Origin: Candidatus Saccharimonadota bacterium
GTDB taxonomy: Bacteria > Patescibacteriota > Microgenomatia > UBA1406 > GWC2-37-13
NCBI GenBank assembly: GCA_001790095.1
Contig: MGBH01000001.1
Location: 300,001-332,000, forward strand
Length of the DNA: 32,000 bases
Reading direction: 5' to 3'
The notes under the pieces were generated by a model. It saw only the letters and a program-made list of their open reading frames with translations, ran no database searches and had not been told where the DNA came from. This document shows, in pieces, positions 4,031 to 31,436 of this stretch. Positions within the stretch are counted from its first letter, which is position 1, and each line of letters begins with the position of its first letter. Position numbers and translations under genes: made by a program.

Positions 4031-4386
4031 GCATATATCAGGAGATCATACTTGATCATTTTCAACAACCAAGAAATGCCGGTAATATAAAAAACCCAAC
4101 GAAGACAACGACAGTAAACAACTCTTTGTGTGGTGACAAAATCAAAATGGATATATGTATAAAAGGAGATAAAATTATAGATATAAAATTTTTTGGTAAA
4201 GGTTGCGTAATATCTCAAGCTTCTGCTTCACTTTTAACAGAACATGCTAAGGGGAAAACAAAACAGGAGTTGAAGAAGATGACAAAAACAGATATTATAA
4301 ATCTATTAAAAATTGATCTTGGTCCAAACAGGATCAAATGCGCACTTTTGCCGCTTGAGGCATTGCATAAATTATTAATTGAATAA
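4027..4386 (+). CDS. sufU: SufU/IscU-type Fe-S scaffold / sulfur acceptor
   Basis: 119 aa with the three conserved Cys contexts NSLCGDKI, GKGCVISQASAS and RIKCALLPLEAL. Confidence 0.8.
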   Translation: MSIYQEIILDHFQQPRNAGNIKNPTKTTTVNNSLCGDKIKMDICIKGDKIIDIKFFGKGCVISQASASLLTEHAKGKTKQELKKMTKTDIINLLKIDLGPNRIKCALLPLEALHKLLIE

Positions 4387-4394
4387 ATATATAG

Positions 4395-4670
4395 ATGGAT
4401 CAAACAAAGGTTATTGACTCAAACAATCCGTCAGGCCCAGTTAAAATAAAAAAGCTTAAGATTACCGTAGATCGCAACTTATGTATTGGTGCTGCCACAT
4501 GTATTGCTGTTGCGCCAAAGACTTTTCTTCTTGATTCGGACGCAAAAGCGATCATATTGGAAACAGCCACAGAAGAAACGGAACAAACTATTATTGATGC
4601 AGCAAAAGCCTGTCCAGTTGCAGCCATTATAATTGAGGACGAAAAAGGGCAAAAAGTTTTCCCGAGCTAA
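4395..4670 (+). CDS. Small single-cluster ferredoxin (three-Cys CxxAxxC...CP type)
   Basis: 91 aa. It has LCIGAATCIAVAP plus a distal ACPVAAI. The middle Cys of the canonical CxxCxxC is Ala, which suggests a [3Fe-4S]-type or non-Cys-ligated cluster. It lies immediately upstream of the OFOR genes. Confidence 0.75.
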   Translation: MDQTKVIDSNNPSGPVKIKKLKITVDRNLCIGAATCIAVAPKTFLLDSDAKAIILETATEETEQTIIDAAKACPVAAIIIEDEKGQKVFPS

Positions 4671-4674
4671 AAAT

Positions 4675-6393
4675 ATGGAACAATTCCTTTGGAAGATTGG
4701 TGGAGAAGCGGGTTTTGGTATCCTGACTACAGGTACGATGTTTTCCAAGATAGTATCTCGTTTAGGATATTACATCTTTGACTATATTCAATATCCCTCC
4801 CTCATAAGAGGTGGGCATAACACATATGATGTGGGGTTTTCCGATGCACCCGTTCACGATCTGAAGGCCAATATCGACATGTTGGTTTGTCTCAATAAGG
4901 AAACATTTGATAATCATAAAGAAAGGTTAAGATCCGACAGCTTTGTTATATATGATAGCAAGGAGTTTATACCTGATGGACCTTATATCAACATAGAAGT
5001 TCCATTTAACGAAATACTTACCAAGCTAAAAGGACAAGTAATTATGAAAAACACCATTGCCTTGGGAGCCTCTCTTGCTCTTCTTGGCGCTGATCTAGCC
5101 ATTCTTAATGACCTACTTAAGTCACAGTTCAAAAAAAAGGGAGAAGACGTGGTTCGTTTCAACCAACAGTTTGCTCAAGCAGGATACGATCATATTCTAA
5201 AACAGCACAAAGCACATATTAAATCTATTCTATTACGAAGAGATAACCCAAAACAGCTTGTCATAACGGGAAATGAAACATTTGCGCTTGCCTCTTCCAT
5301 TGCAGATTGTTGTTTATATGTAGCTTACCCTATGACACCGGCTTCCTCAGTGCTTTCTGTGCTTGCAAATTGGCAAATGCAAACCGGTATGGTGGTTCGT
5401 CATGCTGAAGATGAGATTGCAGTTATCAATACTGCAATTGGGGGATCATTAGCCGGAGTAAGGAGTGCGGTTGGAACTTCAGGAGGAGGATTTGCTCTTA
5501 TGGTTGAATCGATATCTTTTGCCGGAATAGCTGAAATTCCACTTGTTATTTTTCTTTCCCAACGCCCAGGTCCTGCCACAGGTATGCCTACATGGACAGA
5601 GCAAGGAGATCTTCTTTTTGCAGTGCACGCAGGACATGGTGAATTTCCCAAGATAGTTCTTGCTCCAGGGAGCATTGATGAGATGTTTAAGCTGACGCTT
5701 AAAGCATATGATTTGGCTGACATTTACCAGACTCCGGTCATTGTTCTTTCTGATATGTTACTTTCAGAATCACACAGAAGTTTGTCAAAAGACCTGGTTG
5801 AAACACAGATAAAAGAATACAAGCCAAATCGTGGAAAGCTTATAGAAAAGCCTGATAAGGAGCCCTATTTGCGTTACAAGATGACAGAAGATGGGGTATC
5901 GGCTCGTCTTATTCCAGGATTTGAGGGGTCCTATTATCAATCAAACTCATACGAACATTTGGAAGACGGTCACACGACTGAGGAAAGTATTGAACGAATT
6001 AACCAAGTTGACAAGCGATCACAAAAAATTCAAACCTATTTTGAGTCACATTTTGTTGGACCAACCATTATAGGAGATATAGAAAAAGCCGAAGTAATAT
6101 TTGTAACCTGGGGCTCGACAAAAGGCGCTACTTTGAGAGCGCAACAAGAGCTTGATAAAAAAGGGAAAAACACAGCCCAGCTTCATTTTACACATGTGTT
6201 TCCTTTATCAGAAAAGATTGTAGCGCCCTATTTAACAAAAAAGAAAAGATATATATTGGTTGAAAACAACTCACATGGTCAGTTTGGAAAGCTCTTGAGA
6301 CAAGAAATAGGAGTGTCTATCATGGAAAAAGTTCTTAGGTATGATGGGAGGCCAATTACAAGTGAAGAAATTGTTCAATCAGTTTTTACATAA
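4675..6393 (+). CDS. 2-oxoacid:ferredoxin oxidoreductase, fused gamma-alpha subunit
   Basis: The N-terminal gamma-type domain begins MEQFLWKIGGEAGFGILTTG. It is followed by an alpha-type domain (GNETFALASSIADCCLYVAYPMTPAS, GTSGGGFALM). The ORF-track start at 4633 is a TTG inside the ferredoxin gene, so ATG 4675 is preferred. Substrate (pyruvate, 2-oxoglutarate or other) cannot be told from sequence alone. Confidence 0.85.
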   Translation: MEQFLWKIGGEAGFGILTTGTMFSKIVSRLGYYIFDYIQYPSLIRGGHNTYDVGFSDAPVHDLKANIDMLVCLNKETFDNHKERLRSDSFVIYDSKEFIPDGPYINIEVPFNEILTKLKGQVIMKNTIALGASLALLGADLAILNDLLKSQFKKKGEDVVRFNQQFAQAGYDHILKQHKAHIKSILLRRDNPKQLVITGNETFALASSIADCCLYVAYPMTPASSVLSVLANWQMQTGMVVRHAEDEIAVINTAIGGSLAGVRSAVGTSGGGFALMVESISFAGIAEIPLVIFLSQRPGPATGMPTWTEQGDLLFAVHAGHGEFPKIVLAPGSIDEMFKLTLKAYDLADIYQTPVIVLSDMLLSESHRSLSKDLVETQIKEYKPNRGKLIEKPDKEPYLRYKMTEDGVSARLIPGFEGSYYQSNSYEHLEDGHTTEESIERINQVDKRSQKIQTYFESHFVGPTIIGDIEKAEVIFVTWGSTKGATLRAQQELDKKGKNTAQLHFTHVFPLSEKIVAPYLTKKKRYILVENNSHGQFGKLLRQEIGVSIMEKVLRYDGRPITSEEIVQSVFT

Positions 6394-9759: not shown

Positions 9760-10761
9760 CTATTTCCGGAACGACAGATAGAGCTCTCTTATAGTATGAG
9801 CTGCATTATACAGATGATAAAGAAAAGGGGAAATGACAAGGTCAAAGCTCCCCACCATCTCCACAAACTTTGTACCATATCCTTCTTTAAAACGGGTAAA
9901 ACCAGCCCATGAATGTTTTTCAGAATAGACGGGCGGCATTGAACCCCACATATCAAACTTTTTCGCGCCAAGTTTTTTACCCAGCAATATGGTGCGCCAC
10001 ATTAAGAGATTTGCAGCCATGAAGTTGCGGTAAAGAGGAGATGTTCCACCATAAGGATAATAAAATACACCGTTAAAATAAAAAAGCTCATACGCGGCAA
10101 GTGGTATATCTTTAAAATACGCAATCAAAATATGGGCAATATCATTACTTAAGCTATCCCATACTATCTTATGATAATGATAATTATGACCAAAATATTT
10201 TTGACGCTTACAGGTGGCAAAGTATAGTTTTTGGAAAACTTCAAAGCCTTCTTTATTTGACATTTCTTTGATCGCAATCCCTTTTTTCTGAGCGAGGCGG
10301 ATGTTATACCTTGTCTTTGGCTTCATTTGCTTTAAAAGATCATCTTCGGTCTTGGTTAAATCTAGCTCTTGAGTCCAAGAAGGAAAAAGTGGGTGAGGGG
10401 ACGGATATACTTTACTTTCTTTATCTATCCGATGTTGTGGATCGTTTTTCAAAACATAGGGTTCAAGCTTAACAAATATAAGACCTTCTTTTTTCCCAAA
10501 ATCCAGTAAAAAATGGACAACATCCTTAGAAAGGTTCGCTGATCTTGGAATATATCCAATTCTTAATCCAAAAGGAAGCAAATGGATAGTCATTTGAAAT
10601 GAATGACAAAGTTCTGTTCCGTCAAACTCACCAAATCTCAACACGCGGACTCCTGTTTTTTTTCGAGCTTCTCCCCACGCCCATGATTGAAGCGGATGAA
10701 CTGCCCTACTGTCAAAAAGATTTTTATTGAAATTATCCTCGATGATTTTCACTTTGTGCAT
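9760..10761 (-). CDS. FemAB-family peptidoglycan interpeptide-bridge aminoacyltransferase
   Basis: 333 aa with the FemAB-like N-terminus HPLQSWAWGEARKKTGVRVLRF and overall Fem/MurM-like length. It is the last gene of the minus-strand envelope operon. Confidence 0.75.
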   Translation of the reverse strand: MHKVKIIEDNFNKNLFDSRAVHPLQSWAWGEARKKTGVRVLRFGEFDGTELCHSFQMTIHLLPFGLRIGYIPRSANLSKDVVHFLLDFGKKEGLIFVKLEPYVLKNDPQHRIDKESKVYPSPHPLFPSWTQELDLTKTEDDLLKQMKPKTRYNIRLAQKKGIAIKEMSNKEGFEVFQKLYFATCKRQKYFGHNYHYHKIVWDSLSNDIAHILIAYFKDIPLAAYELFYFNGVFYYPYGGTSPLYRNFMAANLLMWRTILLGKKLGAKKFDMWGSMPPVYSEKHSWAGFTRFKEGYGTKFVEMVGSFDLVISPFLYHLYNAAHTIRELYLSFRK

Positions 10762-10780
10762 AAGACTATATTATAGTTTA

Positions 10781-12289
10781 TTATTGGTAGGATGATCTAA
10801 TCATTTCAAATACTGTAGCCATATCACTATTTTTCTCTAATTTTTCCGCAACCTGCTTGATATCGGTGATGATAAACGGCTTTGTCATTTCTCCATAAAA
10901 TCCACCATGGGTTCCCTTATGTTCTTCAAAAGCAAATAAAGTACCATTATGGTCTACATCTCCAAACAACACTATATCGCCATTATTTTGGAATGTTGAA
11001 TAGTGAGCAAGAGATTGAATAATGCGTTCATTAACATGAAATTGATGAAGTTGTGCAAAGGGTTTGCCAGTAGTTGTGACTATTTTTCCGTTTACAAACT
11101 CAACATTACCATGTTTCCCAAAAAGCACTCTTTTTTCATGATCAACTCTTACAAGAACCCAACCAACCTCTTTCATATTGAGTAGTTTTGAGATCAATGC
11201 TGGATAGAGTTTTGATATTTCATCCAAAATATATGGTTTTTGCAACCGTTCAGAAAAATAAACCTGCATAGATGATCCAGCCGGAACAAGATAAACATCT
11301 TTCCCTAGTTTTATTGAAGCATTCATATATGAACAAGTAATATTTCTTGATTTATCATCAAGCGCCAAGGAAAACATCTGCTCAAATGTGATGTTACGAG
11401 GGGTATTGATTGGTTTTGAAGGGGTTTGACCGTGGTCTGACATGATGATGACATCATAATGTCGCTTCGTTTTTTTGGTAGCTTTATAGAGAGATTTGCA
11501 ATACCAATCGATAAGCCGCAGGGAAGAGAAGGATGTTCTGTTGTCAACCCCATACTCATGTGCAAATTCGTCATATAATACAAAATCAATAAAAAGTATT
11601 GGTGTCTCTCTCAGTATTTCTATTTCACCAATATAGCTTCCTATATTGCCAAGAAAGATTCGTGAAAAAGAATCTTTCAGAAGGGAGACGGATAGTTTCA
11701 ATGAACCCATTTTTATGAGAGTTAAAAAGCTTTGAAGAAAGCTTTTTAATATGAGATAGAGAATATAAAAAAAACGGACAGGATTTAAAAAGATAATAAG
11801 GACATACTGCATTTTTTTTAAAATATGAAACGGGGAGCGCATAGTTAGTTCTTTTCCAGACAGACTATACTGTGTTGCTCCGGCGTTATAAACTCCGAAA
11901 ATACAAGTACCGCCTTCAAGGAGATTGGTTTTCTTTGGAATAATATTCTCAAATAAATCAATTACCTCACCACGATTACCTCTGATAAAACGCATAAGAG
12001 TACGGTCAAACCAGGCAAACCCAGGAATATTGTTGCTTTCACCAAAAAAAAGTTCGGCTTCAGTTGCGGCAGTTGAGGCAGGAGGTGGGCAGTAGTAATC
12101 ATGCAGATGATAGTTTTTTGTCAAAAGTCCCTTAATGAAAGAACAGTATTTTTTACGTATGGCCTGTCTTAATATGTTATGACTTAGTCCATCAATCAGA
12201 ATAATGATCAAACCTTTTTTATGAGCTGGGACAGTGCTTTTAGAAAGACCAAATACTTTTAAAATAAGAAAAAAGAGGGTTTTACGCAT
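10781..12289 (-). CDS. Alkaline-phosphatase superfamily (NPP / type I phosphodiesterase-like) membrane-associated enzyme
   Basis: It has an N-terminal hydrophobic segment, a metal-site context LIIILIDGLSHN, a candidate nucleophile region PPPASTAATE, and the motifs DEFAHEYG and IIMSDHGQTP. Confidence 0.6.
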   Translation of the reverse strand: MRKTLFFLILKVFGLSKSTVPAHKKGLIIILIDGLSHNILRQAIRKKYCSFIKGLLTKNYHLHDYYCPPPASTAATEAELFFGESNNIPGFAWFDRTLMRFIRGNRGEVIDLFENIIPKKTNLLEGGTCIFGVYNAGATQYSLSGKELTMRSPFHILKKMQYVLIIFLNPVRFFYILYLILKSFLQSFLTLIKMGSLKLSVSLLKDSFSRIFLGNIGSYIGEIEILRETPILFIDFVLYDEFAHEYGVDNRTSFSSLRLIDWYCKSLYKATKKTKRHYDVIIMSDHGQTPSKPINTPRNITFEQMFSLALDDKSRNITCSYMNASIKLGKDVYLVPAGSSMQVYFSERLQKPYILDEISKLYPALISKLLNMKEVGWVLVRVDHEKRVLFGKHGNVEFVNGKIVTTTGKPFAQLHQFHVNERIIQSLAHYSTFQNNGDIVLFGDVDHNGTLFAFEEHKGTHGGFYGEMTKPFIITDIKQVAEKLEKNSDMATVFEMIRSSYQ

Positions 12290-22034: not shown

Positions 22035-22586
22035 ATGAAAGATCTGACGATAGATGACGTTATGGTAAAGGTAAAAAATGATATTTTTGTCCAAGATTAC
22101 TCAAAAAAGCAAGTTATTGAAGGAGTGAAGGTCCTCGAGGTTAAACGTATGGTGGGGGAGGACGGAACGTTTGAAGATTTATTGCACGTAAAGGAAGATG
22201 GGTTTTTTGAACTGTTTCCCGAGATTAAAATCCGACAGATAAATAGATCAAAGCTGCTCCCCGGCTCCATAAAAGCATGGCATCTACATTTCAAACAAGA
22301 AGATATATGGTATATTCCACCCGAAGATCACATGATCTTGGGATTATGGGATACGCGCGAAGCATCAATCACCAAAGACATTACTATGAAAATCGTGATG
22401 GGAAATGGATCATCAAGGGTTGTGCTCGTACCACGTGGGGTAGCACATGGGGTGGTCAACCTTGCTAAAACCCCTGGTAATATATTTTATTTTGTCAATA
22501 ATCAATACAACCCCACCGATCCTGACGAGCGGCGTCTTCCTTGGGATAAACTGGGCGCTAGTTTCTGGGAAATAGAAAAAGGATAA
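22035..22586 (+). CDS. RmlC-like cupin (dTDP-4-dehydrorhamnose 3,5-epimerase family)
   Basis: 183 aa. IEGVKVLEVKRMVGEDGTFEDLL, IKAWHLHFKQEDIWYIP and LVPRGVAHGVVNL match the RmlC-fold pattern. Confidence 0.7.
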   Translation: MKDLTIDDVMVKVKNDIFVQDYSKKQVIEGVKVLEVKRMVGEDGTFEDLLHVKEDGFFELFPEIKIRQINRSKLLPGSIKAWHLHFKQEDIWYIPPEDHMILGLWDTREASITKDITMKIVMGNGSSRVVLVPRGVAHGVVNLAKTPGNIFYFVNNQYNPTDPDERRLPWDKLGASFWEIEKG

Positions 22587-23251
22587 GTAATCTGGTTGTA
22601 GATTGCACAGGGCTTTTTGTAATAAAAAGCCCACTCACGATCTCCATAAGAAAAATGCCACCACTCTCCGTCAAATGGGGCAAAACCTGCACCCATCATA
22701 ACTTTGCGCAATATCATTCGATCTCCTTTTTGCTTATTTGTTATTTCACCTGAAAAAACGTAGTATTTCAGTGTTGAGTAATCATAAATAGGCGATCCAA
22801 AATCAATCTGTTTTCCAGTTCTATTATCAATGATATACAGATCAACAGCTCCACCTGTTGGATGACCTGCAACTGATGGAACTGCAACAGATCTGTGCAC
22901 AGATTCATACAAATCTACTGGGTTTGCATAATATTTTTGGTTAACTATTGCAAGGCGTTTAAGAAATCTTAAGATTTGTATCTTGAGTGATCGATAACCG
23001 TATACTACATACAAAGAATAATTCTGATTAATTTTTAACAGTGTTCGCTGCGCTTTTAGTAGACGGTTATAAACGTCTTTTCTTACCAAAATATCGTTTC
23101 CTGTAACTCGTTTCATATCCTGCATTTCAGGCAGATAGCCATTTGGAATATTGACGATCTTTATAAGCGGCTCGTTACACTCTTTGGACGGGACGTTTAT
23201 TAACTGTGTATATTTCACCATTGTGTCCTCGAGCCGCTTTATTTTTCTCAT
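22502..23251 (-). CDS. VanX/DdpX-like D-Ala-D-Ala dipeptidase (peptidase M15D)
   Basis: VVYGYRS corresponds to the DdpX YDAYRP region. The zinc-site motif is SVAGHPTGGAVDLYI (H-x6-D) and EWWHFSYGD is present. The C-terminal ~28 aa are antisense to the RmlC-like gene and may be a non-conserved tail. Confidence 0.8.
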   Translation of the reverse strand: MRKIKRLEDTMVKYTQLINVPSKECNEPLIKIVNIPNGYLPEMQDMKRVTGNDILVRKDVYNRLLKAQRTLLKINQNYSLYVVYGYRSLKIQILRFLKRLAIVNQKYYANPVDLYESVHRSVAVPSVAGHPTGGAVDLYIIDNRTGKQIDFGSPIYDYSTLKYYVFSGEITNKQKGDRMILRKVMMGAGFAPFDGEWWHFSYGDREWAFYYKKPCAIYNQITYPFSISQKLAPSLSQGRRRSSGSVGLY

Positions 23252-23255
23252 AGTT

Positions 23256-24695
23256 TTACACTATTTTTTTAAAGAATATCCGCCTATCTCTTTCAAACTC
23301 TCCACTCGTTCTTTTTTGTCTTACTTCCTGTTGCATTTCGCGGTCTTGATCAGTAACCTGAATAAACCCAAGTTTTTTGTAAAGTCTTTGTGAGGCCGTA
23401 TTACTTTCTGAAGTACGCATAAGTACAGTTGTTCCTTTGGCAAAAGACTTTATGCGTTCTTTTACTAATACTTCAGCTATTGATTTTCTTCTCCATTCAC
23501 TAAGAACTCCAAGATCGGCCATATACTGTGTTGATTCAATGGGTATACCAAACTGTTTTGCAATTTCTGCAATCTCCTTTTTTTTCGAAAGAGGGACTGC
23601 AGCTCCAAATCCGATAAGGCCATTTTTATTTCTGGCAAAAAACAGTGTGCCGTCCTTTTGGTATTCGTTAAAATCCGTCGCCACTTCTTCGTAGGAAAAT
23701 ACTTCATCGTATGGAGGTCCTCCGAAGATAATATTGTATGCACTCAGGAGTTCTCCATTTTCCAGATATTGACCTAACTGTTGAGAGGTATATATTCTTT
23801 CAATAACGATAGGGCCATCATCAGTTTCAATTAATGTCCCCATATTTAATATTTCTACTAGTCCCTGTATTTGTGCATAATTGAACCGGGTTCCATCAAA
23901 GTTTATAGATACCTTAATAGTTTGCCCAGAAGGTTGAATAATAGGTTCCTCAATAATTGAATTTCCTGAATTTTTTGCAAGTACCATGCCGACGGCAGTT
24001 GTTCCGCTTCCACAAGCTGTTTCTAAAAATAGAGTATTACTATTTTTTACATAAACAACTGGAGTAATCTCTATTCCCTTTCGAGTTCGTTTAGCAAACA
24101 TTACGCCTGCAGCCGGTTCGGTATCAAGCCCATTTTTACGGATTATATCCATCCCAATTTTTTTTATTTCCTCTTCATCTTTGCCTTTAATTTGAGTTGT
24201 ATTCCAATCAACATACTGGGTTATGCCTTCCATATATACGAAGTTGTTTTCCGGATTTGAAGAGTCTATCTGTACTCTGTCAGGGTCAGAATAGATTGGC
24301 ATTTGAGCATATGATTCACCATCAGTGGTTACTCCTGCTATTAATGCGTCTTCTACTCCACCTGCTTTTATGCGTATTTGTCCTGGCATACCTTTGAGAG
24401 CAAGGTATGCGGCGCTTCTTGTGGCATTTCCGCAAAACTCACCTCCAGCCATCATAAGTTCCGTGCTGTTAGGCTTAAAGTCAACAAATCCCACCTGTTC
24501 TATTTGATTTGGAGATCCAGATGGATATAAAGACATTATTTCATCATTAATTTTTATTCGTTCAAACGGATCTTTTACGATACCCATTATTAATGACGTA
24601 TCATTACCGCCTGGGCGCATATTAATGAAGCGGTATTGGTTATTTGAACTCGCTAATTCTTTTGGTTTTAATTGTGGTTCCATAATTTTTTTCAT
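23256..24695 (-). CDS. Fusion protein: DapF/CntK-like PLP-independent two-cysteine amino-acid racemase/epimerase (N) + GNAT N-acetyltransferase (C)
   Basis: N-terminal ~300 aa: RPGGNDTSLIMG, EQVGFVDF, AGGEFCGNATRSAAYLA (first catalytic Cys context) and ETACGSGTTAVGMVLA (second Cys context). C-terminal ~170 aa: ADLGVLSEWRRKSIAEVLV (motif A-like) and ASQRLYKKLGFIQV (the classic GNAT ...lYek.GF ending). Confidence 0.6.
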   Translation of the reverse strand: MKKIMEPQLKPKELASSNNQYRFINMRPGGNDTSLIMGIVKDPFERIKINDEIMSLYPSGSPNQIEQVGFVDFKPNSTELMMAGGEFCGNATRSAAYLALKGMPGQIRIKAGGVEDALIAGVTTDGESYAQMPIYSDPDRVQIDSSNPENNFVYMEGITQYVDWNTTQIKGKDEEEIKKIGMDIIRKNGLDTEPAAGVMFAKRTRKGIEITPVVYVKNSNTLFLETACGSGTTAVGMVLAKNSGNSIIEEPIIQPSGQTIKVSINFDGTRFNYAQIQGLVEILNMGTLIETDDGPIVIERIYTSQQLGQYLENGELLSAYNIIFGGPPYDEVFSYEEVATDFNEYQKDGTLFFARNKNGLIGFGAAVPLSKKKEIAEIAKQFGIPIESTQYMADLGVLSEWRRKSIAEVLVKERIKSFAKGTTVLMRTSESNTASQRLYKKLGFIQVTDQDREMQQEVRQKRTSGEFERDRRIFFKKIV

Positions 24696-24728
24696 AGAAT
24701 TACTAAATACTAAAATCAGGCAGGATAT

Positions 24729-24754
24729 AAAAAACCCCGCCTTTAAGCGGGGTT
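24729..24754 (-). terminator. Intrinsic terminator hairpin in the 5' leader of the racemase-GNAT operon
   Basis: Minus-strand RNA reads AACCCCGC-UUAAAG-GCGGGG-UUUUUU. It has a 6-bp all-GC stem (extendable by A-U pairs), a 6-nt loop and a U6 tract. It ends 33 nt upstream of ATG 24695. Confidence 0.6.
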
Positions 24755-24775
24755 AATGAAGTGAGACCAAACAAA

Positions 24776-24841
24776 TTACCCCGCAACAAGCGGGTGATGA
24801 TGGAGAATATCAGTTATAAAATTATAAAGTTTAAAGTCCAT
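24776..24841 (-). CDS. Candidate 21-aa leader peptide MDFKLYNFITDILHHHPLVAG
   Basis: Hand-translated: ATG GAC TTT AAA CTT TAT AAT TTT ATA ACT GAT ATT CTC CAT CAT CAC CCG CTT GTT GCG GGG TAA. The ATG lies 14 nt after the predicted -10. The three His codons abut the first GC-rich hairpin arm, and the stop codon directly follows the second arm. Confidence 0.35.
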   Translation of the reverse strand: MDFKLYNFITDILHHHPLVAG

Positions 24842-24850
24842 AAAGTTATA

Positions 24851-24870
24851 TTAGTATATTACCATACTAA
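24851..24870. promoter_or_regulatory. Inverted repeat TTAGTAT-N6-ATACTAA (candidate operator)
   Basis: It has perfect 7-bp arms and overlaps the -10 and spacer of the minus-strand promoter. Further (A)TACTAA copies occur at 24701-24706 and 24707-24713. It is adjacent to the TrpR-like yerC-family gene. Confidence 0.35.
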
Positions 24871-24884
24871 TACATCATTGTCAA
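24856..24884 (-). promoter_or_regulatory. Candidate sigma70-type promoter of the leader and racemase-GNAT operon
   Basis: On the minus strand: TTGACA (24884-24879), a 17-nt spacer ending TGG (extended -10), then TAATAT (24861-24856). Confidence 0.5.
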
Positions 24885-24912: not shown

Positions 24913-25230
24913 ATGAAAAAGATGAAAGACAATTTTTCAAAACCTACTCCCTATAAACCCGCAAATGCTAAAGAAAAAAGATTAATGAAGATCCTTGCTT
25001 TACTTAACAACGAGCAGGATGTAGCAAACTTGTTTCGAGACCTGCTAACACATTCTGAAATTGAAGAATTTGCCAATAGAATAGAGATACTTAGATTGCT
25101 CAAAAAAGGATTTTCCTATCAAAAAATCGCGCATGAAATTGGTTCCTCAACAACTACTGTTACACGGGTTGCTCATTGGCTATACCATGGGTCAGGTGGA
25201 TATCAAAAAATCATTGACTTTCTTGACTGA
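24913..25230 (+). CDS. TrpR-related YerC/YecD-family DNA-binding protein
   Basis: 105 aa. ILALLNNEQDVANLFRDLLTHSEIEEFANRIEILRLLKKGFSYQKIAHEIGSSTTTVTRVAHWLYHGSGGY aligns by eye along the whole length of B. subtilis YerC (..FFEDICTINEL..SQRFEVAKML...TYLDISEKTGASTATISRVNRSLNYGNDGY). Confidence 0.85.
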   Translation: MKKMKDNFSKPTPYKPANAKEKRLMKILALLNNEQDVANLFRDLLTHSEIEEFANRIEILRLLKKGFSYQKIAHEIGSSTTTVTRVAHWLYHGSGGYQKIIDFLD

Positions 25231-28586: not shown

Positions 28587-29798
28587 TTATTTTAAGAACG
28601 TTTCATATACGTGTTCAACGTCTTTATCTCCTCGTCCTGATAGATTAATGATAATTACATCATCTTTCTTCATTTTTTTTGCAAGTAGTACCCCATAATG
28701 TACCGCGTGAGCTGATTCAAGAGCGGGGATAATACCTTCTGTTTTTGAAAGCTCAACAAATGCGTTTACTGCCTGTTTATCTGTTGCGTTAACACACGTC
28801 AATCTCTTAGTGGTTTTCAGAAAAGATAATTCTGGTCCAACTCCAGGATAGTCTAGTCCTGATGCGGCACTGTAAGATTCAGCTATGTTTCCATCTTTAT
28901 CCTGTAAGGTCAAGGTTTTGAATCCATGGATTAAGGTCACTTTGCCCTTTCCTAGCGATAAACCATGACGATTGGAGTCTTCTCCTTTTCCTGCGGGTTC
29001 AACAGCAATTAAGACAACTTCTTTATCAGGTAAAAATGCGAAAAAAGCCCCCATTGCATTGCTACCTCCGCCAACACAGGCAACAACAGCCTTTGGAAGT
29101 TTACCCTCTTTTTTTAATATCTGAATCCTCGCTTCCTTCCCTATTATTTTCTGAAAGTCACGTACCATAACGGGATAGGGGTGTGGTCCGACAGCTGATC
29201 CCAAAAGATAATATGAATCAGGCTCTTTGACGTATGCGGTAAGAGCTGCGTCTACTGCGTCTTTTAGTGTACTTTGACCTTGGGTAACAGTAATTACGTT
29301 TGCCCCCAGGATTTTCATACGGTATACGTTTGGTTTTTGTGCGTCTATATCACGTGCACCCATATAGATATCGCACCTCATTCCAAAGTATGCAGCAATC
29401 GTTGCGGTTGCCACTCCGTGTTGTCCTGCTCCTGTTTCGGCAATGAGTTTCTTTTTACCCATATGATAGGCGATCAATCCTTGGCCTATACAATTGTTTA
29501 TTTTATGTGCCCCCGTGTGGTTTAAGTCTTCTCGCTTGAGGTATATCTTTGCTCCCCCTATTTTATTGGTCAGGTTTTGGGCAAAGTAAAGATTGCTTGG
29601 TCGACCTGCATATTCTTTATACATAGCATGAAGCTCATTTTGAAAAGACCTGTTTTTTCGCAATTGGTAATATTTTTGTGTGAGAATTTTTAACGCGCTT
29701 TCAAGCTCAGGTGGAACAAAACGCCCGCCAAATTCTCCAAAATAACCGTTTTTATCAGGTAAAGAATGTGTTTGCATAGTTAATTGTTTAGTTGTCAT
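28587..29798 (-). CDS. trpB: Tryptophan synthase beta chain (TrpB1-type)
   Basis: Motifs seen are GYFGEFGGRFVPPEL, the PLP-lysine motif HTGAHKINN, and GGGSNAMG. The track start at 29852 is a TTG inside a palindrome. ATG 29798 or ATG 29777 gives a normal ~400-aa TrpB. Confidence 0.9.
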   Translation of the reverse strand: MTTKQLTMQTHSLPDKNGYFGEFGGRFVPPELESALKILTQKYYQLRKNRSFQNELHAMYKEYAGRPSNLYFAQNLTNKIGGAKIYLKREDLNHTGAHKINNCIGQGLIAYHMGKKKLIAETGAGQHGVATATIAAYFGMRCDIYMGARDIDAQKPNVYRMKILGANVITVTQGQSTLKDAVDAALTAYVKEPDSYYLLGSAVGPHPYPVMVRDFQKIIGKEARIQILKKEGKLPKAVVACVGGGSNAMGAFFAFLPDKEVVLIAVEPAGKGEDSNRHGLSLGKGKVTLIHGFKTLTLQDKDGNIAESYSAASGLDYPGVGPELSFLKTTKRLTCVNATDKQAVNAFVELSKTEGIIPALESAHAVHYGVLLAKKMKKDDVIIINLSGRGDKDVEHVYETFLK

Positions 29799-29823
29799 TC
29801 CCGTAAAGACGGGAACCCAGACT

Positions 29824-29870
29824 AGAATATTAATAACAATTATTTGTTTCAATTTAATATTAAATTGAAA
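29824..29870 (-). promoter_or_regulatory. 24-bp perfect palindrome overlapping a candidate trpB promoter
   Basis: The palindrome TTTCAATTTAAT|ATTAAATTGAAA spans 29847-29870. On the minus strand its TTGAAA (29852-29847) is followed by a 17-nt spacer and TATTCT (29829-29824). Confidence 0.3.
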
Positions 29871-29915: not shown

Positions 29916-31436
29916 TTATTTTTCATAGGAAAAGGAAGAATATTTATTTGTAATCCCAATTTTTTCCCTTACCTCCATCATTTTCTTTGATGCCTGTAAT
30001 CGGGCTTTTGCAGCACCTGATTGTAATATCATTTTTATTCTTTCGGGATTTGTTTTCAATTGGCTATATAATTCTCGTTCTTTTTTAAACTTTGTAAGTA
30101 TTGCTTGAAAAAGTTTTTCTTTTACTTCTACATCTGCCACCGTTCCTTTTTCATATCTATTTTCAAGATCTTTAACTTCTTTTTTGTCATCGTTAAGCAA
30201 GCGATGATAAGTGAATATTGGGTTACCGTCAACTCGTCCAGGATCTGTCGCTTTAATACGATTTGGGTCAGTAAAGCAACTCATGACTTGTTTACGAATT
30301 ATTTTTTCCTCAGCAAAAACAGCGATGTAATTATTCAAACTTTTACTCATCTTGCGCTTGCCATCAGTACCAATCAAACGAGCACTTTCCTTCATATTAA
30401 AGATGTCAGGAAGGTTAAATGTTTTCCCATATGTTTTGTTGAAAAATCCTCCAACATCTCTTGTGATTTCAATATGTTGTTTCTGATCGTCTCCAACAGG
30501 CACATAGTCAGGGTCATACAAAAGAATGTCTGCGGCCATAAGGATGGGGTAACTGAAAAGTCCCATATTTATATCTTCCGGATTGGTTCCTTTTTGGAGT
30601 TTGTCTTTATACGCGTGTGCACGCTTGATAAGAGAAAGTGGAGTAATATTGTTTAAAATACTTTGTAGTTCAGTGTGCTGGGGTATGTCAGATTGTCGAT
30701 AAAAAACTACTTTGTTTGTATCAATCCCAAATGCTAAATAAGACAACACAAGATTTTCAACGTTTCGTTGCATTTCATCTCTTTTTTGTATGGTTGTGAG
30801 AGCATGAAGATCAGCGATAAAAAAATACACCTTATCAGCTTGCTTTTGCAATTCCAAGAATGGAACTACGGCTCCTAGATAGTTACCTATGTGTACTTCC
30901 CCGCTTCCTGATGGAGTAATGCCAGTTAAAATTGAGTAATGAGATTTAAGTATAGAATCAGAAGCTGATTTGATGAATCCAACATCCACTATGGTCGAAT
31001 TTGGCAGATTGATGAGATCTGATGTTTTATAGTTAATACTTGAAGTAAAGCTTCCTGAACCTGCCTGAACATATTTTTTTTCAAATATTTTTTTATCAAG
31101 AAATGTTTTTACGACTTGAGGTATATAAATACGCGCACTTCCAGGCTCAAGTCCTGTAAGAGAAGAAAACTCTTTATTGGTTGCCATAGTTAATAAAGTG
31201 GTTTTGGCAGCTTTTTTAAGTTTCTCCAAGTTTACTTTGCAATCATCTCTTCTAATAACAGCGATATATCCATAATCAACTTTAAAGATCAACGTTGAAG
31301 CTCCATTTTCAAAGGTAAGCTTGCAGTAATTGAGAACATCCTCAACTTCTTTAAAATATGGGTGTTCAACCACATAGTGATCGACATTCAGTTCCTTGAG
31401 CTTGTTTGAGTATTCTTTTACGTTTAGTTCTATCAT
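29916..31436 (-). CDS. trpS: Tryptophanyl-tRNA synthetase with N-terminal YbaK/ProX-like (aminoacyl-tRNA deacylase-type) domain
   Basis: The C-terminal ~335 aa is class I TrpRS: ITPSGSGEVHIGNYLGAV (HIGH-type), GDDQKQHIEITRDV and KMSKS. The N-terminal ~165 aa (..ASTLIFKV..VNLEKLKKAAKTTLLTMATNKEFSSLTGLEPGSARIYIP..YVQAGSGSFTSSINYKTSDL) resembles YbaK/EbsC-type editing domains. Confidence 0.8.
   Translation of the reverse strand: MIELNVKEYSNKLKELNVDHYVVEHPYFKEVEDVLNYCKLTFENGASTLIFKVDYGYIAVIRRDDCKVNLEKLKKAAKTTLLTMATNKEFSSLTGLEPGSARIYIPQVVKTFLDKKIFEKKYVQAGSGSFTSSINYKTSDLINLPNSTIVDVGFIKSASDSILKSHYSILTGITPSGSGEVHIGNYLGAVVPFLELQKQADKVYFFIADLHALTTIQKRDEMQRNVENLVLSYLAFGIDTNKVVFYRQSDIPQHTELQSILNNITPLSLIKRAHAYKDKLQKGTNPEDINMGLFSYPILMAADILLYDPDYVPVGDDQKQHIEITRDVGGFFNKTYGKTFNLPDIFNMKESARLIGTDGKRKMSKSLNNYIAVFAEEKIIRKQVMSCFTDPNRIKATDPGRVDGNPIFTYHRLLNDDKKEVKDLENRYEKGTVADVEVKEKLFQAILTKFKKERELYSQLKTNPERIKMILQSGAAKARLQASKKMMEVREKIGITNKYSSFSYEK

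Follow-up and report, generated by a model that had tools for sequence, protein, structure and literature searches.

A histidine-racemase-like/GNAT fusion protein encoded with a VanX-like M15 dipeptidase under putative histidine-responsive control

The window analysed here (the whole stretch of 32,000 nucleotides, positions 300,001 to 332,000 of contig MGBH01000001.1 of a Candidatus Saccharimonadota bacterium) contains a gene for a fusion protein in which a racemase-like domain is followed by a GNAT acyltransferase domain. The ATG start codon of a gene for a VanX-like M15 zinc dipeptidase was found 4 nt past the stop codon of the fusion gene, which placed both genes in the same operon. On the other side, an intergenic region of 217 bp separated the fusion gene from a divergent gene for a regulator of 105 aa. 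The minus-strand location of the fusion open reading frame (ORF), the co-translated M15 gene and the histidine-regulon context had all been missed by an earlier, model-made reading of the same DNA (the first-pass annotation), and the M15 gene and the context tell more about the function than the fusion itself does. The positions of the features are collected in Table 1.

The fusion was examined first as a protein. All of the motifs previously quoted for it, GGNDTSLI, EQVGFVDF, GGEFCGNATRS, ETACGSGTTA, IQPSGQTI, SEWRRKSIAEVLV and SQRLYKKLGFIQV, were present in the translation, and the two-domain protein proved to be a natural, conserved fusion. A search of 5.8 billion proteins revealed more than 120 full-length (~450-510 aa) fused clusters of 40-72% identity, which, where named, came from Roizmanbacteria, Gottesmanbacteria or Microgenomates; most belonged to the Microgenomates group of the Candidate Phyla Radiation (CPR). 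The identical protein was present on 24 contigs, and the split versions of the racemase and the GNAT in other genomes were clean adjacent genes. A frameshift or an assembly artefact was ruled out by the fused clusters and by the exact copies on the 24 contigs. The AlphaFold2 model of the whole protein, built with 35 homologues, reached a predicted local distance difference test score (pLDDT) of 92.9 and a predicted template-modelling score (pTM) of 0.87, with disorder confined to residues 1-16.

An exhaustive search of 50%-identity representatives returned 2,073 relatives at E<=1e-3; the best 150 of them comprised ~30 clusters with the racemase-GNAT order, ~11 clusters with the GNAT-racemase order and many standalone racemases. 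The genomic surroundings were investigated in a set of loci obtained by scanning a single genome of each species with patterns plus tblastn, which yielded 573 relatives. The retrieval patterns included residues E86, C88, E225 and C228. The best 80 loci (designated by L numbers) were analysed by calling the ORFs, comparing them with the window proteins and clustering all the neighbours, so that counts out of 81 refer to these 80 loci plus the window. The GNAT was fused C-terminally to the racemase in ten loci, the window among them, was fused N-terminally, in the reverse order, in L036, L043, L054, L063, L067 and L076, and was encoded by a separate gene adjacent to the racemase in L010, L016, L019, L034, L047 and L074. 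In a neighbour-joining tree of the racemase domains, which was rough and carried no support values, the Clostridial fusions (L015, L017), the GNAT-racemase proteins of Saccharibacteria and the alphaproteobacterial fusions each stood apart from the CPR fusions. Since the fusion types fell into separate clades, the tree indicates at least three independent racemase/GNAT fusion events.

The first-pass annotation had not recognised the fusion as a characterised architecture, and a literature search likewise found no paper describing it; searches for N-acetyl-D-histidine and for D-histidine together with histidyl-tRNA synthetase (HisRS) and a racemase gave nothing relevant either. The fusion and the gene module around it are thus apparently undescribed, no publication having been found; they add a third histidine-racemase clade, which is new both in its fused partner and in its regulated pathway context. 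The sequence-similarity network published for the histidine racemase HisR was limited to proteins of 250-308 aa (PMC11602996), so racemase fusions would have been left out of it.

The N-terminal domain had been read as a racemase of the DapF fold that is independent of pyridoxal phosphate and uses two cysteines, and profile, PDB and Foldseek matches agreed with this. Residues 21-287 matched the NCBIfam models of histidine racemases (HisR-Fuso with an E of 1.3e-20 and CntK with an E of 2.6e-19). PDB sequence searches with the domain returned histidine racemases only, namely 9cr1/9cr6 (HisR) and 6jis/6l4l/6jiw (CntK), at E values of ~1e-12 for the single sequence and ~1e-31 for the family profile. 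The public copy of the protein carried the precomputed Pfam label PF26317 CntK_N on its N-terminal domain; a local Pfam search gave no match for the N-terminal part, DAP_epimerase included. The nine best Foldseek matches in the PDB were all CntK and HisR chains with target-normalised TM-scores (TMt) of 0.73-0.79, whereas DapF reached a TMt of 0.57-0.66, and hydroxyproline epimerases and proline racemases were likewise clearly less similar. DapF was also missing from the match list of the family profile. The proposal that the domain is nearer to CntK than to DapF was thereby upheld and holds for HisR as well; the CntK motifs given for this comparison agreed with the alignments to 6jis and 9cr. 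The identities of PhzF, proline racemase, hydroxyproline epimerase and DapF were rejected as more distant by fold and missing from the sequence matches.

Residues C88, C228, E66, Q67, E86, E225 and N31 were invariant in 35 fused homologues and in the 81 racemase domains. The alignment of the 35 sequences came from an independent hidden Markov model search, and E66, Q67 and N31 lay outside the retrieval patterns. C88 and C228 aligned with the catalytic C67 and C209 of HisR, each of which sits at the helix N-terminus of one of the two lobes (PMC11602996). Further, E66, E86 and E225 aligned with E49, E65 and E206 of HisR (CntK counterparts E46 and E208); in HisR, E65 and E206, with E49 as a CntK-style alternative, are proposed, not proven, to bind the imidazole (PMC11602996). 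The fold, the catalytic residues and the family of the racemase domain are therefore identified. Judged by its sequence, the domain is to be placed in a separate clade, as an orthologue of neither HisR nor CntK, and it most likely interconverts D- and L-histidine.

The assignment of the C-terminal domain to the GNAT family also stood. Four Pfam models scored above their gathering thresholds over residues 335-448 (PF00583, 36.3 bits against a threshold of 20.7; PF13508, 33.6 against 27; PF08445 and PF13673), and a separate model of residues 296-479 showed a standard GNAT fold with a pLDDT of 96.8. This model gave 433 GNAT-type matches in the PDB at E<=1e-3 by Foldseek. The neighbours included PaiA, RimI, Ard1, NAA30/50/60, BAR/PAT, TTR and ArsN, the last three being amino-acid N-acetyltransferases, and were generic (TM-scores of 0.6-0.77), hence uninformative for the acceptor. 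The best NCBIfam match was RimI, with 23 bits against a cutoff of 86. In the alignment of the 35 sequences, residues F324, P328, Y329, E331, F333, Y391, R427, T428, N432, D470 and R472 were invariant. The pyrophosphate-binding loop of motif A, for which the reference pattern is Q/R-x-x-G-x-G/A, was represented by RRKSIA (R402 to A407) in the window protein; the family consensus, RRxGIGK, fits the pattern.

The M15 protein encoded downstream retained the residues R71, H116, D123, E181 and H184 of VanX in an alignment to the structure 1r44. A homologue adjoined the racemase gene in 34 of the 81 loci, mostly on the same strand and overlapping or a few bases off, in CPR lineages, Saccharibacteria, Clostridia, Alphaproteobacteria/Micavibrio, a metagenome-assembled genome (MAG) of Bdellovibrionales and a MAG of Micrarchaeota. 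It was present in all 21 of the evaluable loci containing the GNAT, and it occurred without the GNAT in 13 loci. The M15 protein is thus the obligatory partner wherever the GNAT is present. In 11 Clostridial loci, an ArgE/DapE-type M20 deacylase was encoded directly downstream of the racemase instead of M15.

Several observations were made on the surroundings of the M15 gene and on the distribution of the module. At their 3' ends, the M15 gene and a convergent gene for a dTDP-sugar-isomerase-like (cupin) protein (22035-22586, plus strand) overlap by 85 nt (22502-22586). A protein family of ~270-520 aa, designated c13, takes the place of M15 in several CPR loci, after a standalone racemase and before hisS, the gene of HisRS; it had no Pfam, NCBIfam or PDB sequence match. 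The module was also found in MAGs of host-dependent or predatory organisms outside the CPR, assigned to Micrarchaeota (L034), Micavibrio (L043, L051) and Bdellovibrionales (L070), which could reflect horizontal transfer or mis-binning. As a DPANN archaeon, the Micrarchaeota member should be without peptidoglycan.

The racemase genes were linked to histidine genes in many of the loci. Homologues of hisS were found in the flanks of ~23 of the 81 loci, often adjacent and on the same strand; the copies tested exceeded the hisS equivalog cutoff and most kept the RGLDYY and GGRYD motifs. The gene order was repressor, racemase-GNAT, M15 and hisS in the CPR loci L002, L003 and L014, and hisS, racemase-GNAT and M15 in L005. 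In L015 and L017 the fusion gene was embedded in the order hisZ, hisG, racemase-GNAT, hisIE, hisS and M15. Two loci encoded a fusion of HisRS, with its catalytic and anticodon-binding domains, and the racemase in a protein of 703 aa (L062 1765-3876, L064 3508-5619), and in two others M15 was fused to the ATP phosphoribosyltransferase HisG in proteins of 588-595 aa (L019 9810-11597, L040 8806-10572). The loci L011, L013, L019 and L040 (with two copies) had tRNA-His(GTG) genes directly upstream, those of L019 and L040 being upstream of hisS, and genes of a histidine-type polar amino-acid ABC transporter preceded the racemase in several Firmicutes loci.

Two further observations concern the hisS genes. 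Locus L015 encodes two HisRS paralogues (4243-5574 and 10131-11450). The copy within the module belonged to a tight group with those of L013, L017, L019, L022, L029 and L040, which were 50-68% identical to the L019 copy, the other copy being ~29% identical; on sequence grounds this suggests a HisRS lineage specific to the module. Directly after hisS, a gene of an EamA/DMT-family transporter was found in L003 (11461-12396) and L014 (11367-12272), which could be an exporter or an importer of the pathway substrate or product.

Additionally, elements of two putative control layers were observed upstream of the fusion gene. A predicted sigma-70-like promoter is followed by a leader ORF of 21 codons, MDFKLYNFITDILHHHPLVAG*, with three consecutive His codons, and by four mutually complementary segments. 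Pairing of segments 3 and 4, followed by a U-run, would form the terminator (-15.5 kcal/mol, z -3.8), ~40 nt ahead of the fusion start codon, and pairing of segments 2 and 3 the antiterminator (-13.1 kcal/mol); the whole leader fold had a z of -3.5. Segment 1 adjoins the His codons, and the leader stop codon comes after segment 2, as in the classical attenuators of his and trp operons. Stalling of a ribosome on the His codons would free segment 2 and let the antiterminator form. In L001, the nearest relative with 71% protein identity, the same attenuator design was found with the leader H-H-P-H, and the promoter -35 element was kept.

Such leaders were not confined to the closest relative. A blind scan of all loci found 88 short ORFs with at least three His in four residues in 2.2 Mb, and in 17 of the 81 loci such a His-run ORF stood as a leader immediately ahead of the racemase operon and on its coding strand, where 1.2 would be expected by chance (P ~2e-14). 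Ten Clostridial loci shared the leader MKxxIFLNxLHHHRRSL, followed by GTAGG-type hairpins and a terminator with compensatory stem substitutions. A His-run leader preceded hisZ in L015 and L017, and an HHHH leader was present in the CPR locus L010. The His-leader attenuators matched no Rfam family; in the window and four loci, a search at Rfam gathering thresholds returned tRNAs only, with no T-box or other known RNA leader.

The divergent regulator matched the Pfam model Trp_repressor and the NCBIfam model yecD_yerC (56 bits against a cutoff of 42.2). Its best PDB matches were 3kor, 3g1c (HisR of E. eligens) and 3frw, well ahead of the true TrpR, and in 18 loci the racemase gene had a homologue of the regulator directly upstream. 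Under its other name, HisR, YerC is known as the histidine repressor, which requires L-histidine as a co-repressor for DNA binding in vitro (PMC9413887). A perfect palindrome, TTAGTAT-N6-ATACTAA (TTAGTATATTACCATACTAA), overlaps the promoters of both the operon and the regulator gene. It was the only exact match in the window, where 0.24 matches were expected at up to two mismatches, and L001 had a related palindrome at the same position plus a second perfect copy. The palindrome differs from the consensus of the Firmicutes repressor, cacTTTA-N6-TAAAgtg (PMC9413887). It is a candidate operator of the adjacent YerC/HisR-type repressor.

A link to tryptophan, suggested by the Pfam name of the regulator and by nearby genes, was ruled out for this operon, the adjacent regulator being of the YerC/HisR type and a separate TrpR-type paralogue being present in the genome. 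The nearby genes encode a tryptophanyl-tRNA synthetase (TrpRS; 29916-31436, minus strand) with an N-terminal YbaK/ProRS-editing-like (tRNA_edit) domain of ~165 aa, and a standalone TrpB (28587-29852, minus strand) which follows it. An editing domain on TrpRS is unusual. The TrpR-type paralogue (L081 2183-2496) heads this trpS/trpB cluster just outside the window and is accompanied by an ACTAGT-type operator-like sequence, ACTAGTGTACTAGTATACTAGTA. Because the two paralogues head different clusters, regulators of the TrpR family appear, in this organism, to stand before operons that supply one particular amino acid each.

Table 1. Positions of the features in the window and of related elements in other loci (L numbers).
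Feature	Position	Strand	Remarks
Racemase-GNAT fusion gene	23256..24695	minus	479 aa counted from the first ATG
Alternative start of the fusion gene	24683		public gene calls begin 4 codons later, 475 aa
Histidine-racemase-like domain	23826..24638	minus	aa ~20-290, CntK_N/DapF fold
Catalytic Cys88 of the racemase domain	24432-24434 (codon)	minus	
Catalytic Cys228 of the racemase domain	24012-24014 (codon)	minus	
GNAT acyltransferase domain	23259..23810	minus	aa 296-479; by Pfam, alignment and domain model
VanX-like M15 Zn dipeptidase gene	22502..23251	minus	Pfam PF01427, 61.8 bits
Predicted sigma-70-like promoter	24856..24884	minus	TTGACA-17-TAATAT (TG-extended); would serve the leader and the operon
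Leader ORF	24776..24841	minus	three consecutive His codons at 24794-24802
Putative attenuator RNA	24727..24794	minus	four mutually complementary G+C-rich segments
Attenuator segments 1 and 2	24790-24794; 24779-24784	minus	CCCGC; GCGGGG
Attenuator segments 3 and 4	24747-24752; 24736-24741	minus	CCCCGC; GCGGGG, then U-run
Perfect palindrome, candidate operator	24851..24870		
YerC/HisR-type (TrpR-family) regulator gene	24913..25230	plus	divergent from the fusion gene
Clostridial His-leader family	L027, L030, L045, L046, L048, L050, L052, L058, L064, L068 (e.g. L068 4256-4440)		upstream of racemase, M20 or hisS operons
c13 protein	L009 8804-10366; L011 8104-8925; L020 9246-10151; L023 8786-9601; L038 3781-5364		

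A His-codon attenuator combined with a HisR-type repressor predicts induction of the operon by scarcity of L-histidine; the operon should be on when charged tRNA-His and L-histidine are low, where the sequence elements were observed and the regulation is deduced from them. Because of the neighbouring genes, the repressor, the palindrome and the His-codon leaders, the fusion gene was assigned to a histidine-limitation regulon. It was proposed that the fusion protein is a bifunctional enzyme of this regulon, composed of a CntK/HisR-type racemase and a GNAT, which feeds the L-histidine pool. We put the probability of this explanation as a whole, membership in the regulon included, at roughly 0.55.

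According to this proposal, the fusion gene would be co-transcribed, and probably translationally coupled, with the M15 gene under two layers of control, a YerC/HisR-type repressor, for which L-histidine is the co-repressor in characterised relatives, and a ribosome-mediated His-His-His attenuator. The M15 dipeptidase would release histidine, probably D-histidine, from a conjugate of dipeptide size, and L-histidine for HisRS would then be made from the D-histidine by the racemase. A role of the module in L-histidine supply is suggested because the operon is predicted to switch on under histidine limitation. The GNAT would be an N-alpha-acyltransferase that depends on acetyl-CoA and whose acceptor, of amino-acid size, is connected with this chemistry; the best single guess for the acceptor is the D-enantiomer of histidine, acetylated as a control or detoxification valve.

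Several points weigh against this explanation. The racemase domain scored well under the equivalog cutoffs of the known histidine racemases (74.2 against 400 bits for NF052224, the HisR model, and 69.7 against 300 bits for NF033599, the CntK model), so its putative specificity for histidine was deduced from conserved residues and context only. The full conservation of E86, C88, E225 and C228 across the 80 loci is partly circular, because these residues sat in the retrieval patterns. D-Histidine is regarded as rare in nature (PMC6955911). In motif A of the GNAT, a Ser replaces the first Gly in the window protein and likewise in its closest relative, P0002. Under histidine starvation, the acetylation of histidine in any form looks wasteful. 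The substrates of VanX-type enzymes are D,D-dipeptides, and a natural D,D-dipeptide that contains histidine is not known. Finally, no Shine-Dalgarno sequence is obvious for the leader ORF, the predicted transcription start is only ~8 nt away from it, and no hisS was found within the 32-kb window.

The repeated independent fusions in both domain orders, which are typical of consecutive pathway steps, would also suit an N-acetyl-D-histidine synthase. The racemase would make D-histidine from L-histidine and the fused, D-specific GNAT would acetylate it at once, so that the equilibrium would be pulled, free D-histidine would stay low, and N-acetyl-D-histidine or a derivative would be the product. 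A precedent for the first step is known from S. aureus, where CntK makes D-histidine for a product (PMC11602996). The GNAT resembles alpha-amine acetyltransferases, BAR/PAT, TTR and ArsN included, its invariant charged residues E331, R427, D470 and R472 would suit a zwitterionic acceptor, and the EamA-type genes after hisS in L003 and L014 could provide an exporter. However, the attenuator and the HisR-type repressor predict induction by histidine shortage, by which a pathway draining L-histidine should not be induced, and the channelling into N-acylation that the first-pass annotation had suggested is in some tension with the predicted starvation induction. Further, the GNAT is absent from most loci with the racemase and M15 or with the racemase and M20, the literature search found no mention of the product, and the M15 dipeptidase and hisS would be left without a role. 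We consider such a synthase unlikely.

The strict co-occurrence of the GNAT with M15 in the 21 evaluable loci, while M15 often occurs without the GNAT, might instead point to an acceptor other than histidine. The GNAT would then act on the second dipeptidase product, such as a D-amino acid, or on a macromolecule connected with His charging, such as D-His-tRNA or a protein, and the fusion to the racemase would serve only co-expression or sensing. Acetylation of D-amino acids is known from the yeast D-amino-acid N-acetyltransferase, and the relatives of the GNAT domain include the protein and peptide N-terminal acetyltransferases RimI, Ard1 and NAA30/50/60. The occurrence of both fusion orders speaks against one fixed channel geometry, and the starvation induction and all of the context evidence would be compatible with a non-histidine acceptor. 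Nevertheless, the repeated fusion partner of the GNAT is the racemase and never M15, and the pTM of 0.87 suggests a fixed two-domain assembly; an acceptor of this kind was judged improbable.

A three-enzyme stereo-inversion of histidine was likewise judged improbable. In it, one enantiomer would be N-acylated by the GNAT, the resulting N-acyl-histidine racemised by the DapF-type domain and the other enantiomer deacylated by M15 (or M20), irreversibly and at the cost of one acyl-CoA. The joint travel of the three enzyme types would be accounted for, since the genes of the GNAT, the racemase and the metallo-amidohydrolase are co-operonic, the GNAT never occurs without M15, and ArgE/DapE-type M20 deacylases replace M15 in the 11 Clostridial loci. 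The D-to-L pathway of Geobacillus draws on these kinds of enzyme as well, with a GNAT succinyltransferase, an M20 L-desuccinylase and a racemase (10.1101/2022.03.03.481873), and the D-to-L direction would fit starvation induction. Yet the contacts of HisR/CntK to the free alpha-amino and alpha-carboxyl groups (N31, Q67 and two helix N-termini) are all kept, and HisR accepts no modification of the substrate backbone (PMC11602996). No linked GNAT was found in the 13 M15 loci mentioned above or in any of the M20 loci. Characterised M15 enzymes such as VanX require the residue that contributes the amine to the cleaved bond to be in the D-form. Such a specificity would give the L-to-D direction, the wrong one for a starvation regulon.

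The preferred explanation, of a bifunctional enzyme feeding the L-histidine pool under histidine limitation, could be extended beyond the window. We regard it as possible, though doubtful, that this third and much larger histidine-racemase clade belongs, so far unrecognised, to the core of the histidine-starvation regulon in Firmicutes, in CPR bacteria and in further lineages that are predatory or have small genomes, and that the racemase, together with an M15 or M20 hydrolase and often a fused GNAT, would turn D-histidine or D-histidine conjugates into L-histidine for HisRS. Under this extension, an acetyl-CoA-driven stereo-inversion route analogous to the NSAR pathway (with its racemase for N-succinyl amino acids) could exist. 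D-Histidine would then be a real nutritional currency or a hazard for the carriers, and the HisR-type racemases would gain a physiological role.

Cofactor-independent histidine racemases (EC 5.1.1.24) were characterised only recently; the role of CntK is clear, and none has been assigned to HisR of F. nucleatum. The locus offers a frame for the bacterial use of D-histidine, the racemase being tied to hisS, tRNA-His, hisZ/hisG, hisIE and putative histidine control. The module is common in CPR bacteria, the amino-acid economy of which is poorly understood, and the published HisR regulon would be extended to these bacteria and new phyla and to new enzyme members. It consists of three small, soluble enzymes that are directly assayable. 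If the GNAT and M15 act on histidine derivatives, the module would represent a new route of amino-acid stereo-conversion or salvage.

Among the characterised systems, HisR of Fusobacterium nucleatum (PDB 9CR1/9CR6, PMC11602996) was the best match in both sequence and fold (profile E of 7e-32, Foldseek TMt of 0.73-0.79). Both catalytic Cys, the EQVGF, GGEFCGNA and E-x-x-C-x-SGT motifs and the three candidate Glu residues for the imidazole are shared, but the identity to the window racemase is ~26%, and the score on the HisR equivalog model is 74 against 400 bits. HisR itself is a single-domain protein of 271 aa in an 'orphan operon' without an assigned physiological role, whereas the window protein carries a GNAT domain and is encoded, with M15, in an operon predicted to be regulated by histidine. 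CntK of S. aureus (PDB 6JIS) shares the fold, the motifs and the Pfam label CntK_N and was the top Foldseek match (E of 3.7e-19, TMt of 0.75). It differs in making D-histidine for the opine metallophore staphylopine and in being encoded with cntL, cntM and exporter genes (PMC11602996). Neighbours of the cntL (nicotianamine-synthase-like) or cntM (opine dehydrogenase) type were found neither in the window nor among the recurrent neighbour families of the 80 loci, and a staphylopine-like metallophore cluster was ruled out by their absence. DapF has the two-lobed fold and the two-thiol mechanism class in common with the window racemase, but its TMt is 0.57-0.66, its motifs differ, and it serves lysine and peptidoglycan synthesis, whereas the context in the window is that of histidine metabolism.

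The predicted regulation resembles that of the Firmicutes HisR (YerC) regulon, where the same regulator family, leaders with 3-5 His codons and a terminator/antiterminator, and in some loci a histidine ABC transporter, are found (PMC9413887). The members there are his biosynthesis genes and transporters, the main text contains no mention of a racemase, hisS, a dipeptidase or an acetyltransferase, and CPR bacteria were outside that study (PMC9413887). In the stereo-conversion pathway of Geobacillus, too, a single operon encodes a GNAT together with a racemase and a metallo-amidohydrolase (10.1101/2022.03.03.481873). That pathway employs separate proteins and an enolase-superfamily racemase (NSAR) acting on N-succinyl amino acids, whereas the window module has M15 as its hydrolase and, fused to the GNAT, a racemase of the DapF fold with binding residues of the free-histidine type. 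The catalytic and zinc-binding residues of VanX/DdpX (M15D) are all kept by the window M15; however, the latter scored 44 bits against the equivalog cutoff of 320 bits, and its family is tied to histidine genes, with a HisG fusion in two loci, rather than to van/ddp.

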